A stretch of DNA of 64,000 bases from a bacterium. Its GTDB lineage: Bacteria; Patescibacteriota; Gracilibacteria; JAUYGZ01. The notes beneath the pieces are model-generated. The model was not told the origin of the DNA, made no database searches, and saw only the letters and a list, made by a program, of their open reading frames with translations. The stretch spans positions 19,325 through 83,324 of the forward strand of contig JAUYGZ010000012.1 of assembly GCA_030690415.1 (NCBI GenBank). Reading direction: 5' to 3'. A program made the translations under genes and the position numbers. Positions 45,675 to 48,297 of the stretch are shown in pieces; the stretch's first letter is position 1; each line of letters opens with the position of its first letter.

Positions 45675-45691
45675 TCAATAATCATACACCC

Positions 45692-45719
45692 GTAGAAACG
45701 CATAGCTATGCGTCTCTAC
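45692..45719. repeat. Degenerate REP palindrome gtagaaacgcatag/ctatgcgtctctac
   Basis: Read directly; one arm mismatch. Followed by acgcggacctacgcatctcaccgttcatacccac. Confidence 0.7.
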
Positions 45720-45769
45720 ACGCGGACCTACGCATCTCACCGTTCATACCCACCCGCCAACGCCACCCC

Positions 45770-45798
45770 GTACAGACGTTTTGCCAAAACATCTCTAC
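45770..45798. repeat. Degenerate REP palindrome gtacagacgtttt-gcc-aaaacatctctac
   Basis: Read directly; two arm mismatches. Confidence 0.55.
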
Positions 45799-45872
45799 CC
45801 CCTTCACGCCCCCTCCCCCTTTTTCTGATTTGTGGTTGATTTATTGCGCGAGTTTGATATCATAGAGATACA

Positions 45873-45916
45873 AAGCTTGGACGCTGAAGCTATTGCTACA
45901 GTGCTTCCGGGTGTCA
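45873..45916 (-). other. Inverted, rearranged fragments of the adjacent tRNA-like gene
   Basis: 45873..45885 (aagcttggacgct) is the reverse complement of 45993..46005 at 12/13 positions, and the mismatch would be G:U in RNA. 45904..45916 (cttccgggtgtca) is the exact reverse complement of 46005..46017. The order of the two pieces is swapped relative to the tRNA. Confidence 0.7.
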
Positions 45917-45971
45917 CAGAAACTCTTCCTCACGGGAGGGTTTTTCTGTATGCTCCAAAAGCTGGTGGTAT

Positions 45972-46047
45972 GGGGGCGTAGCTTAATGGTAAAGCGTCCG
46001 AGCTTGACACCCGGAAGATGCCGGTTCAATTCCGACCACCTCCACCA
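45972..46047 (+). tRNA. Aberrant tRNA-like gene (76 nt, CCA encoded): alanine-type acceptor (G3:U70, A73), apparent anticodon TGA, three A:C mismatches; possibly a pseudo-tRNA
   Basis: Hand fold. Acceptor GGGGGCG/CACCTCC has G3:T70 and C6:A67. D arm GCTT-AATGGTA-AAGC. Two nt precede the anticodon arm CCGAG-CTTGACA-CCCGG, which has an A:C mismatch and extends to 6 bp with T:A. Variable region AAGAT. T arm GCCGG-TTCAATT-CCGAC has a C:A mismatch. Ends in ACCA. Confidence 0.5.
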
Positions 46048-46184
46048 GCATATTAAGAAATGGGGACGATGAATCAAAAGGTTTTTTTATTGTGCGGGCT
46101 GAACATTTATGAACCCCTGGCTAAATAAACCCGTACAGACGCCACGATAAATTGTAGAGACACCCCGTAGAGACGTTTGACCCC

Positions 46185-46213
46185 GTAGAGACGCCCCGGC
46201 GGGGCGTCTCTAC
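46185..46213. repeat. REP palindrome gtagagacgcccc-ggc-ggggcgtctctac
   Basis: Perfect 13-nt arms. Preceded by three half-sites (ccgtacagacgcc, tgtagagacacc, ccgtagagacgtt) at 46131..46177. Confidence 0.85.
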
Positions 46214-46384
46214 ACGCACACCATCGCAAACCATCGCAAACCAACGCATCCCCGTTCATACCCACGCAACCCACACGACCCTGCGCATACCCACAAAAAC
46301 AAAACATAAACATCCGTACGTAAAGACCATCCGTGAATGGTCCTTATTAATTATGGTAATATACAATTGTTCTATATCGTTCCA

Positions 46385-47170
46385 ATGTTTCCATCCGCAA
46401 CGTACCACCTTATCGACGAATCCCGATTCCGTGGAAAATACCGTATCGAATCGACGCGACTAAAACATTACGATTATTCATCGGATGGCGCGTATTTCAT
46501 CACCATCTGCGCGAAAAATATGGAACATTTTTTTGGGGAAATACGGGATGGGGAGATGCGATTATCAGAAATGGGGAAAATTGTTGCGCATGAATGGGAA
46601 CAGACAGAAATTATACGCAATTATATTATTTTGGATGAATGGGTGGTGATGCCGAATCATTTTCATGCCATCGTGATCATTAATAAACCAATAACCACAC
46701 CCACTCGAACGACACCATATATGTATACAACCACCACAAATATGCCTCCGACGGGACGTTTGGCCCCCGTAGAGACGCCCCGCCGGGGCGTCTCTACAAT
46801 ATATCGGGGCGTCTCTACACCGTATACAACACGCCGGGGCGTCATCACGAATGGGGGCGCATTTTCGAACACGGATACGGACAAAAACATGGATTACACC
46901 ACAGTTACCAATACGACCGTTTCACCATATAAAAATCCCAATCACAAACCCCAATGGAAACCAGGTTGTCTTGGCGCAATTATTAACCAATTTAAATCCA
47001 AATGTACTAAACTCATTCGCACTATATATCCCGATTTTTCGTGGCAATCCAGATTCCACGACCGCATCATCCGTGATGAGAACGCACTGAATCACATCCG
47101 CGAATACATCAGAAACAACCCCATGAATTGGGAAAATGATCGGAACAATACGAAAAATCTGAATATGTAA
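46385..47170 (+). CDS. REP-associated tyrosine transposase (RAYT; IS200/IS605 Y1 HUH family) with a REP-containing low-complexity insert
   Basis: Start at the ATG at 46385 (MFPSATYHLIDESRFRGKYRIESTRL). HUH motif in VVMPNHFHAIVI. C-terminal WQSRFHDRIIRDENALNHIREYIRNNPMNW carries the catalytic Tyr context YI..NP. The insert PVETPRRGVSTIYRGVSTPYTTRRGV is encoded by REP sequence. Confidence 0.85.
   Translation: MFPSATYHLIDESRFRGKYRIESTRLKHYDYSSDGAYFITICAKNMEHFFGEIRDGEMRLSEMGKIVAHEWEQTEIIRNYIILDEWVVMPNHFHAIVIINKPITTPTRTTPYMYTTTTNMPPTGRLAPVETPRRGVSTIYRGVSTPYTTRRGVITNGGAFSNTDTDKNMDYTTVTNTTVSPYKNPNHKPQWKPGCLGAIINQFKSKCTKLIRTIYPDFSWQSRFHDRIIRDENALNHIREYIRNNPMNWENDRNNTKNLNM
46769..46818. repeat. Intragenic REP palindrome (46769..46797) plus an extra half-site (46806..46818) inside the RAYT ORF
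   Basis: gtagagacgcccc-gcc-ggggcgtctctac followed by ggggcgtctctac, in frame in the transposase coding sequence. Confidence 0.85.
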
Positions 47171-47181
47171 CGGTGTCGTCC

Positions 47182-47210
47182 GTAGAGACGCCCTGCCAGG
47201 GCGTCTCTAC
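47182..47210. repeat. REP palindrome gtagagacgccct-gcc-agggcgtctctac
   Basis: Perfect 13-nt arms, 12 nt after the RAYT stop. Followed by acacggacctgcgcatacccacg. Confidence 0.85.
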
Positions 47211-47253
47211 ACACGGACCTGCGCATACCCACGTAAACTCGCACTTACTCTAC

Positions 47254-48297
47254 CTACTCCACCACCCCCCTCTTTTCTTCCTGATACTGGGCGATAGCTC
47301 TTTGAATCATAAACTCAACCGGGGAGTCCATATGGATAGGAATCAGCTCTACGGTTGGTCTCCTGGTCTGATAGACCCGAAAAACCTCATCAGCAAAACC
47401 CTGGCCAACCAGTTGAATTTTTTTAAAATCAAGAATGATCGTATCGAAACCTTCCAACCCTTCGAGGAGTTTTTTTGCCTGGGAACGCGAGACATAGCTA
47501 TCTTCCTGTTTGTAGAGCTCGACAATGGTTTGGGTCTTCGAGAAGCGAAAATCATCATTGGTGTACTGGTCAAAAACACTTTTCAATTCCTTATCACTAC
47601 TTTTTCTCATCCGAAAAATGACTCTGGTTCCTTTTACCGGTTTGATTTCATCAACAAAAACATCTGGAATGGTGTTGTCAAAAATGAGGTGAAGCTTCGA
47701 GCTCATGATTTCGAACCGATCAGCGATTTTTGACGTAAAAAATATTCCCTGCCCAGAGTGATATTTTGGAGAGGTTGTCTGCTTCCCTTTCAGGACACGC
47801 TGAAGCGCTTCGTAATTATCTTTGAGCTGAAATTTTTTTCTGAGATTGTTAAAGATTCCTATCCCCCGATCTGTGATCTCAAAGGAGATTTCTGCCCTAT
47901 TGGCAGTAAAATCAACGGTTACTTTCGAAGAACGCGAATGCTCAATCGCGTTATTCAGCATTTCAGTAAAGGCATAGCTGAGAATACTCTCGACATTTTT
48001 TTTGAGATAATCATGAATAAGATGTTGAATCTTTCCATAAACCTCGTCTTCCTTGAGTGCTGTGTTGTTGAAAGTCTTGTGAAACTGCATGTCAAAAAAG
48101 TGAGACCGTTCCGACGTCAGCACATAAAAAGACCCCTTTGTCTTCCCGATCTGAAAAACCTGCCCTTCATGAACGAGTTCTGAAATAAGTTTACTCGCGT
48201 AAACCCGGGATACGCCTAAAGATCTGGCAATTTCCTGACTATCAATACGCCCATTTTTCTTGAGGATATCGAATATGTGTTGTTTCTTATTTAACAT
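47254..48297 (-). CDS. Single-polypeptide wHTH - GHKL/HATPase_c-like ATPase - STAS-like (DUF4325-type) protein
   Basis: The N-terminus NGRIDSQEIARSLGVSRVYASKLISELVHEGQV is a winged HTH. N-box is FTEMLNNAIEHS, G1 is ITDRGIGI, G2-like is HSGQGIFF. The C-terminus TIILDFKKIQLVGQGFADEVFRVY fits the remembered DUF4325 STAS-like pattern. Confidence 0.7.
   Translation of the reverse strand: MLNKKQHIFDILKKNGRIDSQEIARSLGVSRVYASKLISELVHEGQVFQIGKTKGSFYVLTSERSHFFDMQFHKTFNNTALKEDEVYGKIQHLIHDYLKKNVESILSYAFTEMLNNAIEHSRSSKVTVDFTANRAEISFEITDRGIGIFNNLRKKFQLKDNYEALQRVLKGKQTTSPKYHSGQGIFFTSKIADRFEIMSSKLHLIFDNTIPDVFVDEIKPVKGTRVIFRMRKSSDKELKSVFDQYTNDDFRFSKTQTIVELYKQEDSYVSRSQAKKLLEGLEGFDTIILDFKKIQLVGQGFADEVFRVYQTRRPTVELIPIHMDSPVEFMIQRAIAQYQEEKRGVVE

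Follow-up and report, generated by a model that had tools for sequence, protein, structure and literature searches.

An in-frame REP within a probable subclass 2.4 RAYT gene of a Patescibacteria-like genome

Introduction

The closest described systems are the subclass 2.4 REPtrons defined by Quentin, Siguier, Chandler & Fichant (2018; BMC Genomics 19:475, PMC6006769). Transposases of this subclass carry the motifs NH[IFV]H, WQ and YIxNNP, and their REPs are double-footed (GT[AG]G...C[TC]AC), with GTAGAGACG...CGTCTCTAC types listed in Table S1 of that paper. REPs are also found in frame within tnpAREP itself, in the beta3/alphaC loop that lies between HuH and Y, and these in-gene copies were treated as 'insertions with little impact' (PMC6006769). 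Table 1 of the same paper labels the subclass '2.4 (4)', a label that we take to denote RAYT Group 4 of Bertels et al. (2017; PMC5581495).

Two further systems are relevant. The E. coli REPtron (TnpAREP YafM, PDB 4ER8; REP/BIME) has been described by Ton-Hoang (2012), Messing (2012; PMC3479197) and Corneloup (2021; PMC8266576). In-frame short palindromes in coding genes have also been described as intragenic REPs and Rickettsia palindromic elements (Di Nocera et al., 2013; PMC3733652).

The stretch analysed here, called the window below, comprises 64,000 nucleotides of a 1.45-Mb, Patescibacteria-like genome of the candidate phyla radiation (assembly 98.8% complete). The locus of interest within it is very probably (about 85%) a subclass 2.4 REPtron, that is, a single-copy and apparently intact RAYT/TnpAREP gene with an in-frame REP; membership of the subclass rests on motifs, architecture and REP type, and general RAYT/TnpAREP criteria were taken from Nunvar (2010) and NCBIfam NF047646.

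The RAYT gene and its family

The gene lies on the forward strand as an open frame of 277 aa (46337..47170) of the subclass 2.4 type. The database gene call begins at M17 (46385) and gives 261 aa; this is likely the true translation start and product. The HUH codons CAT TTT CAT (46658..46666, forward strand) encode H-F-H in MPNHFHAIV, with H92 and H94 invariant in the homologue alignment (A1), and NHFH at 46655-46666 satisfies the subclass 2.4 motif NH[IFV]H. The catalytic Tyr motif YIRNNP (47105..47122, forward strand), within REYIRNNP, has its Tyr codon TAC at 47105-47107 and fits YIxNNP. WQ is present in FSWQSRF, and W220, Q221, Y241, I242 and N245 are invariant across the same alignment. 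In total, 26/26 invariant alignment columns are kept, including HUH, WQ and Tyr.

The NF047646 model (REP_Tyr_transpos) matches the protein with an E value of 3.6e-13 and 49.6 bits, and a profile built from the homologue alignment retrieves the 4ER8 TnpAREP (E 1.8e-5). A Foldseek search with the AF2 model, whose core has pLDDT values of 85-98, returned E. coli TnpAREP 4ER8 as top match (prob 1.00), followed by the IS200, IS608 and ISDra2 TnpA proteins. The family assignment made in an earlier note on this DNA, a REP-associated Y1/HUH transposase, is borne out by the NF047646 match and by the fold. The PF01797 comparison proposed there is less favourable: the protein scores 20-21 bits on Pfam Y1_Tnp, below the curated cut-off of 23 bits, and its 49.6 bits on NF047646 likewise fall below the curated 80 bits. 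Excision of the loop in silico raised the NF047646 score to 55.2 bits only. Short-loop relatives, P0003 and P0039, are also under the NF047646 cut-off (69-70.5 bits); on Pfam, P0003 fails (17.8 bits) and P0039 passes (32 bits). Since even short-loop relatives score below the cut-off, the NF047646 equivalog model does not cover the subclass.

A motif scan found a single HUH+Tyr gene genome-wide. Neither tblastn nor the motif scan of the genome revealed a second RAYT that might serve other REP subfamilies, and weak partial tblastn matches on contigs C30 and C1 were rejected as they are without HUH/Tyr motifs. A PF01797 search of the whole genome gave no match, the RAYT itself included, and is uninformative because the subclass scores under the model threshold. 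The RAYT is bordered by a tRNA-like gene and by a gene of the HTH-HATPase-DUF4325 type; neither neighbour is tnpB. The single copy, the same palindrome on both sides and the non-tnpB neighbours do not fit an IS200/IS605 insertion sequence.

REP palindromes at the locus and in the genome

Perfect 29-nt palindromes of the form GTAGAGACGCCC..GGGCGTCTCTAC lie at 46185, 46769 (in frame) and 47182. Exact matches to the pattern GTAGAGACGCCCNNNNNGGGCGTCTCTAC occupy 46185-46213, 46769-46797 and 47182-47210, three in 64 kb against 0.00 expected from 100 shuffles. Folded as single-stranded DNA, each of the three gives a stem of 13 bp and a loop of 3 nt, at -14.5 to -15 kcal/mol (z -6.7 to -8.5). Chance palindromes are ruled out by the shuffles and the folding scores, and the two flanking 29-bp palindromes of the earlier note were recovered as exact pattern matches.

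The upstream flanking REP, GTAGAGACGCCCCGGCGGGGCGTCTCTAC (46185..46213), is a perfect double-foot palindrome with identical copies at C8:56795 and C8:57408. Three left-arm half-sites precede it on the forward strand (46133..46179): GTACAGACGCC at 46133, GTAGAGACACC at 46154 and GTAGAGACGTTTG at 46167. Half-sites had earlier been placed only inside the gene, and this is corrected here, as the flanks hold them too. The downstream flanking REP, GTAGAGACGCCCTGCCAGGGCGTCTCTAC, occupies 47182..47210, with the stop codon 12 nt before it.

The internal REP, GTAGAGACGCCCCGCCGGGGCGTCTCTAC (46769..46797), has the codons GTA GAG ACG CCC CGC CGG GGC GTC TCT AC and is read VETPRRGVST. Its 5' flank, GGGACGTTTGGCCCCC, is similar to the 5' flank of the upstream REP. 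Two extra right-arm half-sites follow on the forward strand (46805..46848): CGGGGCGTCTCTAC at 46805-46818, translated (Y)RGVST, and a degenerate one, CGCCGGGGCGTCATCAC, at 46832-46848, translated RRGVIT. Thus, the perfect copy and extra half-site already reported inside the ORF are confirmed, and a third, degenerate right arm is added to them.

Two palindromes further upstream had been described as degenerate copies of the same element. Neither is a decayed RAYT-linked palindrome: each represents one of two sister subfamilies, the most frequent in the genome, whose inner stems are GCATAGCTATGC and GTTTTGSCAAAAC. The first (GTAGAAACGCATAGCTATGCGTCTCTAC, 45692..45719; inner stem GCATAGCTATGC), of sister subfamily A (~14 genome copies), has one left-foot mismatch and folds as single-stranded DNA at -7.2 kcal/mol. 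The second (GTACAGACGTTTTGCCAAAACATCTCTAC, 45770..45798; inner stem GTTTTGCCAAAAC), of sister subfamily B, has a GTAC left foot and one right-arm mismatch. Together they form an A+B doublet found at 5-6 further genome sites. An Rfam search gave no match for the palindromes and detected the tRNA-like gene only.

Genome-wide, ~45 double-foot palindromes of the family were counted; they fall into five inner-stem subfamilies and lie mostly outside long ORFs. That the palindrome might not be repeated elsewhere, the outcome the earlier note had set against its own reading, is ruled out by these 45 family members and by the exact 29-mer found twice on contig C8. The inner stem CCCCG/CGGGG or CCCTG/CAGGG occurs in only 5/45 census matches; four of the five are exact for CCCCG, the remaining one being the variant downstream of the gene, at 47182. 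Because the inner stems of the dispersed REPs differ from those of the RAYT-linked ones, it does not follow that one enzyme serves all subfamilies. A purL-like ORF at C13:29163 also holds an in-frame REP, translated VETPRRGVST.

The loop that hosts the internal REP

The internal REP lies in a disordered, Thr-rich loop of variable length that runs from beta3, the HUH strand, to alphaC (46697..46930, forward strand; ~78-80 aa). In the AF2 model of the 261-aa form, a strand at residues 92-99 and a helix at 196-211 bracket residues 105-182, which have pLDDT values below 50; in this predicted structure, the internal REP is located away from the folded core, in the long disordered loop. The HUH-to-Tyr spacing is 152 aa, compared with a median of 103.5 and a maximum of 169 among the best 80 of at least 576 relatives. 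Alignment with homologues, as had been suggested for delimiting the insert, gave a loop of 85 aa here and 27 aa in L093, the closest relative with compared DNA. The low-complexity insert of ~80 aa proposed between HUH and Tyr is therefore supported by both the model and its length relative to homologues.

Loop length differs among homologues, and equally long loops occur in many intact relatives. Repeated partial palindromes are present in the loops of P0005, P0011, P0062 and L005, among others. In related genomes, several RAYT copies are split into two frames at the loop region. Both features speak for the loop as a hot spot.

The internal hairpin among relatives

The relatives compared were the best 80 of at least 576 matches, which are not independent of one another. 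Within this set, an internal hairpin was found in 73/80 loci, at a density of 3.7 per kb against a background of 0.55 per kb. For the 72 loci with full flanks, drawn from the same best 80, hairpins were counted in the internal position in 67, upstream in 38, downstream in 34 and in an N-terminal coding control in 8; 17 of these 72 loci have the internal copy alone, with no flanking one. The internal hairpin is therefore present in ~93% of loci that span many phyla, as against ~50% for each flank. Similarity between an internal hairpin and those of its own flanks was 0.74, compared with 0.51 across loci, and 0/2000 permutations reached the observed value. These sequence comparisons show that the internal hairpin matches its locus's own flanking hairpins.

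The copies vary in their setting. They lie 35-270 nt from HUH, their number is variable, and the palindrome is read in two frames, V-E-T in 42 cases and R-D-A in 21. The codons for VET are nearly fixed (GTA 30/31, GAG 28/31, ACG 24/31), whereas conserved P, Y and Q elsewhere have mixed codons. In L093, the protein is 49% identical, the nucleotides 62% and third positions 55%, yet the palindrome is identical at 29/29 positions. Such synonymous-site invariance points to DNA-level constraint or continual renewal, not to a one-off invasion.

The earlier note had described REPs that invaded the gene of the enzyme thought to mobilise them without breaking its frame. The presence of a REP in the transposase gene with the frame intact stands. 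The reading as a special, recent invasion does not: an in-frame REP recurs in relatives of many phyla, the palindrome of L093 is the same base for base, and this arrangement is a published hallmark of subclass 2.4 (PMC6006769).

Explanations of the in-frame REP

In the preferred reading of the locus as a subclass 2.4 REPtron, the three perfect palindromes would be a cognate 29-nt double-foot REP (5' GTAG ... CTAC 3') that flanks the gene on both sides and occurs once inside it. By analogy with the TnpAREP biochemistry of E. coli, Stenotrophomonas and Marinomonas (PMC8266576, PMC3479197), REP binding and cleavage having been demonstrated for group 2/3 enzymes only (PMC8266576), the enzyme would bind the folded REP on single-stranded DNA, using the GTAG foot. 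It would then cut and rejoin beside this foot, by which REPs would be spread and reshuffled. The beta3/alphaC loop may serve as a permissive 'REP nest', and the nested REP would be open both to the same enzyme, as a substrate, and to hairpin slippage. In this way it would be renewed time and again, duplicated in part, and would stay similar to the cognate REP, with selection retaining only those length variants that preserve the reading frame. The peptide encoded by the internal REP is probably irrelevant. Renewal with partial duplication would account for both the half-site arrays (46805 and 46832) and the additional 55-60 residues of this protein. Counting against renewal, the same conservation would be expected if purifying selection acted on a functional element in the DNA or RNA. 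Taken alone, the nest and renewal mechanism stands at about even odds.

The best surviving alternative, tentative as it is, has the internal REP under selection as a cis-element rather than tolerated as a passenger. It would be either an autoregulatory site, at which the gene is controlled by its own RAYT product or through a step of transcription, translation or mRNA decay that is sensitive to the hairpin, or a protected 'master copy' that ensures that enzyme and substrate are co-inherited. The in-gene REP would in that case be the functionally central copy, a directly selected DNA or RNA hairpin used for expression feedback or as a protected template. Such a role would explain why the internal position is more constant than the flanking REPs and why synonymous sites are frozen across phyla. 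The loci with the internal copy only, the palindrome unchanged in a relative of half-identical protein sequence and the folding of a 121-nt region as RNA (-56 kcal/mol, z -3.3) are also consistent with a cis-element. However, the wide range of distances from HUH, the two reading frames and the variable number of copies fit a passenger better. Loss of the internal copy by a deletion of 28-29 nt would disrupt the reading frame, which protects this copy passively, while the flanking copies are unprotected. In the model of Quentin et al., the loop lies at the periphery and affects activity little. The earlier note had raised a coupling of hairpin folding to transposase expression; it may exist, and the DNA-level conservation is the one result here that bears on it. 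A functionally central internal copy is possible but rather unlikely.

An inactive relic is considerably less probable. The 80-aa insert with its half-site debris would have crippled the enzyme, and the frame would be open by chance or through recency. The near-maximal HUH-to-Tyr spacing, the HMM scores under curated cut-offs and the copies split at the loop in related genomes are what a relic would predict, and the nearest relatives in the same genome family are without a close orthologue. Against this, the 277-aa frame stays open across a GC-rich palindromic stretch in which one of the three frames has a TAG, all invariant columns are kept, and the core is predicted to fold with high pLDDT. 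Many intact relatives have loops as long, and the flanking and internal palindromes are perfect, which argues against long neglect. The pseudogene considered in the earlier note is not what was found, as the ORF is apparently intact and homologues with equivalent inserts are the rule.

That VETPRRGVST is a conserved functional peptide and the DNA palindrome a by-product of its codons has hardly any probability. The peptide is nearly invariant in the 22 closest homologues, but family-wide it varies freely while the palindrome is kept by paired changes (P..G to F..N or H..A, among others, as in the compensatory variants VETFRRNVST, VETHCNASL and VGAHGRAPL). The palindrome can be read in either of two frames, and its synonymous positions are frozen, which is not the case at truly conserved residues. 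The segment is predicted to be disordered, and identical 29-mers are found in purL as well as outside genes. Compensatory variants, two frames and codon invariance contradict a protein-level explanation.

Significance

The in-frame REP in its own RAYT gene is real but is a new example of a phenomenon described in 2018 (PMC6006769), and because the layout was published then, the finding itself leaves knowledge unchanged. With this locus, the hosts of subclass 2.4 REPtrons come to include a reduced Patescibacteria genome. The locus is also an extreme one, its 80-aa loop bearing half-site arrays arranged as mirror images. The excess of internal over flanking hairpins and the frozen synonymous sites sharpen the question of whether selection or enzyme-driven renewal maintains the in-gene copy. 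A small enzyme of subclass 2.4 whose putative substrate is a perfect 29-nt REP is a convenient system for this question, and the answer would bear on how REP/RAYT partnerships remain matched over long times.

Comparison with known systems

Subclass 2.4 shares with this locus the motifs (here NHFH, WQ and YIRNNP), the variable-length beta3/alphaC insertion, double-foot GTAG...CTAC REPs within +/-1000 nt of the gene (46185 and 47182) and a REP in frame between HuH and Y (46769-46797). Also shared are about one gene copy per genome, few REPs and a patchy distribution across phyla. The host differs, being a member of the Patescibacteria (Gracilibacteria/Peregrinibacteria-like), and a search of the accessible literature found no link of RAYT/TnpAREP to that group. 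The HuH-Y spacing of 152 aa also differs from the published subclass median of 88, the loop being among the longest, and the mirror-image half-site array is a feature of the present locus.

The E. coli REPtron resembles the locus in its Y1/HUH fold, the best structural match, in the cognate REP hairpins that bracket the gene, in GTAG at the hairpin foot and in a single-copy, domesticated-like gene. Sequence identity is only ~14%. Unlike the REPs described here, those of E. coli have a single foot and a bulged stem, are present in hundreds of copies and do not occur inside the gene. The E. coli TnpAREP has a C-terminal tail contacting GTAG and is without the beta3/alphaC insertion.

Similarly, the TnpA proteins of the IS200/IS605 family (IS608, ISDra2) share the catalytic fold, HUH and Tyr chemistry and recognition of single-strand DNA hairpins. 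Each of these autonomous, multi-copy insertion sequences has subterminal hairpins that differ between its left and right ends, and often tnpB as well. In the locus described here, the gene is present once and is not accompanied by tnpB, the two flanks carry identical palindromes, and further hairpins are dispersed without a gene.

The in-frame elements described by Di Nocera et al. (2013) are likewise tolerated in loops, sometimes as dimers or clusters encoding tens of residues. Their hosts are unrelated housekeeping genes, with insertion sites that differ by gene. In contrast, the host gene here encodes the enzyme presumed to mobilise the REPs, and one insertion site is used throughout the subclass.

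The RAYT gene and its palindromes

The REP-associated tyrosine transposase (RAYT, or TnpAREP) is encoded by a 277-amino acid open frame at 46337..47170 (+) of the window, which the public gene call begins at M17 to give a 261-amino acid protein. The HUH motif lies in MPNHFHAIV (codons 46658-46666, +) and the catalytic tyrosine in REYIRNNP (47105-47107, +). Exact matches of GTAGAGACGCCC-N5-GGGCGTCTCTAC were found at 46185, 46769 and 47182, with none over 100 dinucleotide shuffles. Folded as single-stranded DNA, every copy gives a hairpin of 13 bp capped by a 3-nt loop, at -14.5 to -15 kcal/mol and z about -7 to -8.5. The open frame runs through the copy at 46769 and translates it as VETPRRGVST, after which come an extra right arm at 46805-46818, read (Y)RGVST, and a third, degenerate right arm at 46832-46848, read RRGVIT. 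Three stacked left arms (46133, 46154 and 46167) precede the upstream copy as a mirror image of the internal array. An earlier note had described the open frame, both motifs and the three palindromes in this layout, all of which were confirmed. The two palindromes that it took for degenerate copies are actually members of the two commonest sister REP subfamilies of the genome, A (45692-45719) and B (45770-45798). The internal copy has the 5' flank GGGACGTTTGGCCCCC; the upstream copy and, on the opposite strand, a copy on another contig (C8:57408, contig:position) have a matching one, GTAGAGACGTTTTGCCCCC. Because the three copies have these flanks in common, the sequences point to a unit of about 45 nt exchanged within the genome.

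The protein matched NCBIfam NF047646 (REP_Tyr_transpos; E 3.6e-13) and, weakly, Pfam Y1_Tnp, both under the curated cut-offs. Deletion of the loop in silico gave one continuous NF047646 match (profile positions 7-132 of 146), still of 55 bits. Since short-loop relatives also score only 69-70 bits, this equivalog model misses the subclass. A profile built from 22 homologues found E. coli TnpAREP (4ER8) in PDB (E 1.8e-5). The AlphaFold core is confident (pLDDT 85-98), and residues 105-182 of the 261-amino acid form are modelled as disordered between the HUH strand (92-99) and a helix (196-211). Foldseek ranked 4ER8 first, followed by the IS200, IS608 and ISDra2 transposases. All 26 of 26 invariant alignment columns are retained, HUH, WQ and Tyr among them, for which reason the gene is treated as intact.

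Upstream of the RAYT gene lie genes for an SLH-domain protein and two small lipoprotein-like ORFs; its downstream neighbour (47254-48297, -) encodes an HTH, histidine-kinase-like ATPase and DUF4325 (STAS-like) protein. A 76-nt tRNA-like gene just upstream (45972-46047) has a G3:U70 pair, discriminator A73, anticodon UGA and C37, with A·C mismatches in three stems. Its paralogue at C12:77244-77319 shares G3:U70, the UGA anticodon loop (UUGAC) and an upstream terminator-like module of about 40 nt, and has a REP about 100 nt downstream. A canonical 90-nt tRNA-Ser(UGA) is found elsewhere, on contig C6.

The REP family of the host genome

The assembly comprises 1.45 Mb in 30 contigs (98.8% complete). 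The host is a Patescibacteria bacterium with the standard genetic code, since the best ArgRS matches carry the labels Candidatus Gracilibacteria, Altimarinota, Peregrinibacteria and Patescibacteria, and genome size ranges over 0.7-1.9 Mb in relatives from its class. A genome-wide search found one gene with both HUH and Tyr motifs, and a pattern-based REP census found 45 palindromes of the form GTA[G/C]AGAC-N10-13-GTCT[C/G]TAC. The outer feet are constant among them and the inner stem varies in paired fashion: GCATAGCTATGC occurs in about 14 copies, GTTTTGSCAAAAC in about 10, GCATTGCAATGC in about 7, AATTCATGAATT in about 5, and the RAYT-linked GCCCCGSCGGGGC in 4, plus the GCCCTGCCAGGGC variant at 47182. 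In most of the dispersed copies position 4 is mismatched (C·C or G·G), one foot being GTAC, so that the GTAG foot is presented by one strand only. Changing GTAG to GTAC abolished cleavage by Stenotrophomonas TnpAREP, and a substrate with a GTAC foot was still cleaved by the Marinomonas enzyme, though at different sites (PMC8266576). By analogy, these results may bear on the GTAC-footed REPs of this genome.

REP copies lie mostly outside genes, as judged from long open frames. One at C13:29163-29191, GTAGAGACGCCGCGCCGCGGCGTCTCTAC, falls in phase near residue 616 of a 1267-amino acid purL-like frame and is also read VETPRRGVST; in-frame REPs are known in housekeeping genes (Di Nocera et al., 2013; PMC3733652). 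Further possible in-frame REPs were seen at C9:75657 (472-amino acid frame) and C7:136383 (417-amino acid frame). The nested palindrome at C8:56772-56847, GTACAGACGTCTTGTTATTTT-[perfect 29-nt REP]-AAAATAACAAATTGTCTCTAC, appears to have arisen by insertion of one REP within another REP's loop; the second exact copy is 613 bp away, at C8:57408, with just short ORFs in between. Dispersed REPs are often doublets of A and B in the same orientation, spaced 10-50 nt apart (C6:31292/31330, C9:16185/16230, C26:4627/4666, C30:66107/66174 and window 45692/45770). These sit in strand-biased low-complexity DNA with (GGAGTTA)n or CCAACTC-like heptamer runs, e.g. C9:31440-31477. At C27:79640-82121, six REPs of mixed subfamilies bracket a 416-amino acid ATPase-like gene and a small gene pair whose products, by eye, resemble a nucleotidyltransferase and a HEPN-like protein.

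Internal hairpins in related RAYT genes

A protein search gave 1263 matches, mostly of 170-235 amino acids and some annotated 'REP element-mobilizing transposase RayT'. VETPRRGVST aligned at the same position in most of the 22 best matches. The relatives are encoded at at least 576 genome loci in Chloroflexota, Bacteroidota, Cyanobacteria, Patescibacteria, Proteobacteria and other phyla, from which 80 were fetched as a best-scoring, phylogenetically non-independent sample. The fetched loci have, downstream of HUH, palindromes specific to each lineage, with translations such as VETHCNASL, RDAMHCVST, VETLHATSL and VGAHGRAPL. A hairpin scan at fixed thresholds found a GTAG...CTAC palindrome after HUH in 73 of the 80 loci, at 3.7 per kb versus a far-flank density of 0.55 per kb. 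Among the 72 loci with complete flanks, an internal hairpin was present in 67, an upstream one in 38, a downstream one in 34, and one in the N-terminal coding control in 8. Similarity of the internal hairpin was 0.74 to the flanking hairpins of its own locus versus 0.51 to those of other loci, a result reached by none of 2000 permutations.

The palindrome was read as V-E-T 42 times and as R-D-A 21 times; no locus used the TAG frame. The VET codons are near-invariant (GTA 30/31, GAG 28/31, ACG 24/31), unlike those of the genuinely conserved P, Y and Q residues, where codon use is mixed. L093, the closest relative for which DNA was compared, is identical to the gene described here at 49% of protein, 62% of nucleotide and, for identical residues, 55% of third positions. 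It has the same 29-mer in the same place despite a different genomic neighbourhood, with a loop of 27 amino acids versus 85 in the gene described here. Several RAYT copies in five related genomes (G007, G008, G020, G027 and G029) are split into two frames, N-terminal half from C-terminal half, at the variable REP loop. In-frame TGA codons occur within the copies of G027 and G029, which may read TGA as sense.

Maintenance of the in-gene REP

Two explanations are left for the persistence of the hairpin, and continual renewal is favoured. The loop would serve as a REP nest where both the enzyme and hairpin slippage act, and selection would preserve the reading frame only. Renewal is favoured because the internal REPs differ in number, in reading frame and in their distance from HUH (35-270 nt), arrays of partial palindromes occur in the loops of many relatives, half-site debris adjoins both the upstream and internal copies here, and the flank-sharing unit suggests exchange within the genome. 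The splitting of RAYT copies at the loop is also what a fragile site predicts. In the second, less likely explanation the hairpin would itself be under direct selection as an element of DNA or RNA, a regulatory role included. The comparative figures speak against one old insertion under neutral drift, because the synonymous sites of such a copy would have decayed and the copy would have grown unlike the flanking ones.

Comparison with known systems

The TnpAY1 proteins were classified by Quentin and colleagues (Quentin, Siguier, Chandler and Fichant, 2018; PMC6006769). Their subclass 2.4 has the motifs NH[IFV]H, WQ and YIxNNP, a highly variable beta3/alphaC insertion attributed to short DNA repeats, and long or 'double foot' REPs, GT[AG]G...C[TC]AC, which include GTAGAGACGCACGGCCGTGCGTCTCTAC (Table S1). 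In-frame REPs inside tnpAREP, generally between HuH and Y, were called its 'remarkable and unique feature', and the loop was seen as peripheral, probably without effect on activity. The REP 'invasion' proposed in the earlier note is thus the standard architecture of this subclass and no local accident. RAYT Group 4, which we take to be subclass 2.4, is common in Cyanobacteria, Chlorobia and Caldilineae, with low counts of flanking 16-mers (Bertels et al., 2017; PMC5581495). Biochemistry has so far been limited to group 2/3 enzymes (PMC8266576), and our literature search found no paper linking RAYTs with Patescibacteria. Compared by motifs, architecture and REP type, the locus agrees with subclass 2.4 in every feature tested; it is very probably a subclass 2.4 REPtron, a RAYT gene with its cognate REP hairpins.
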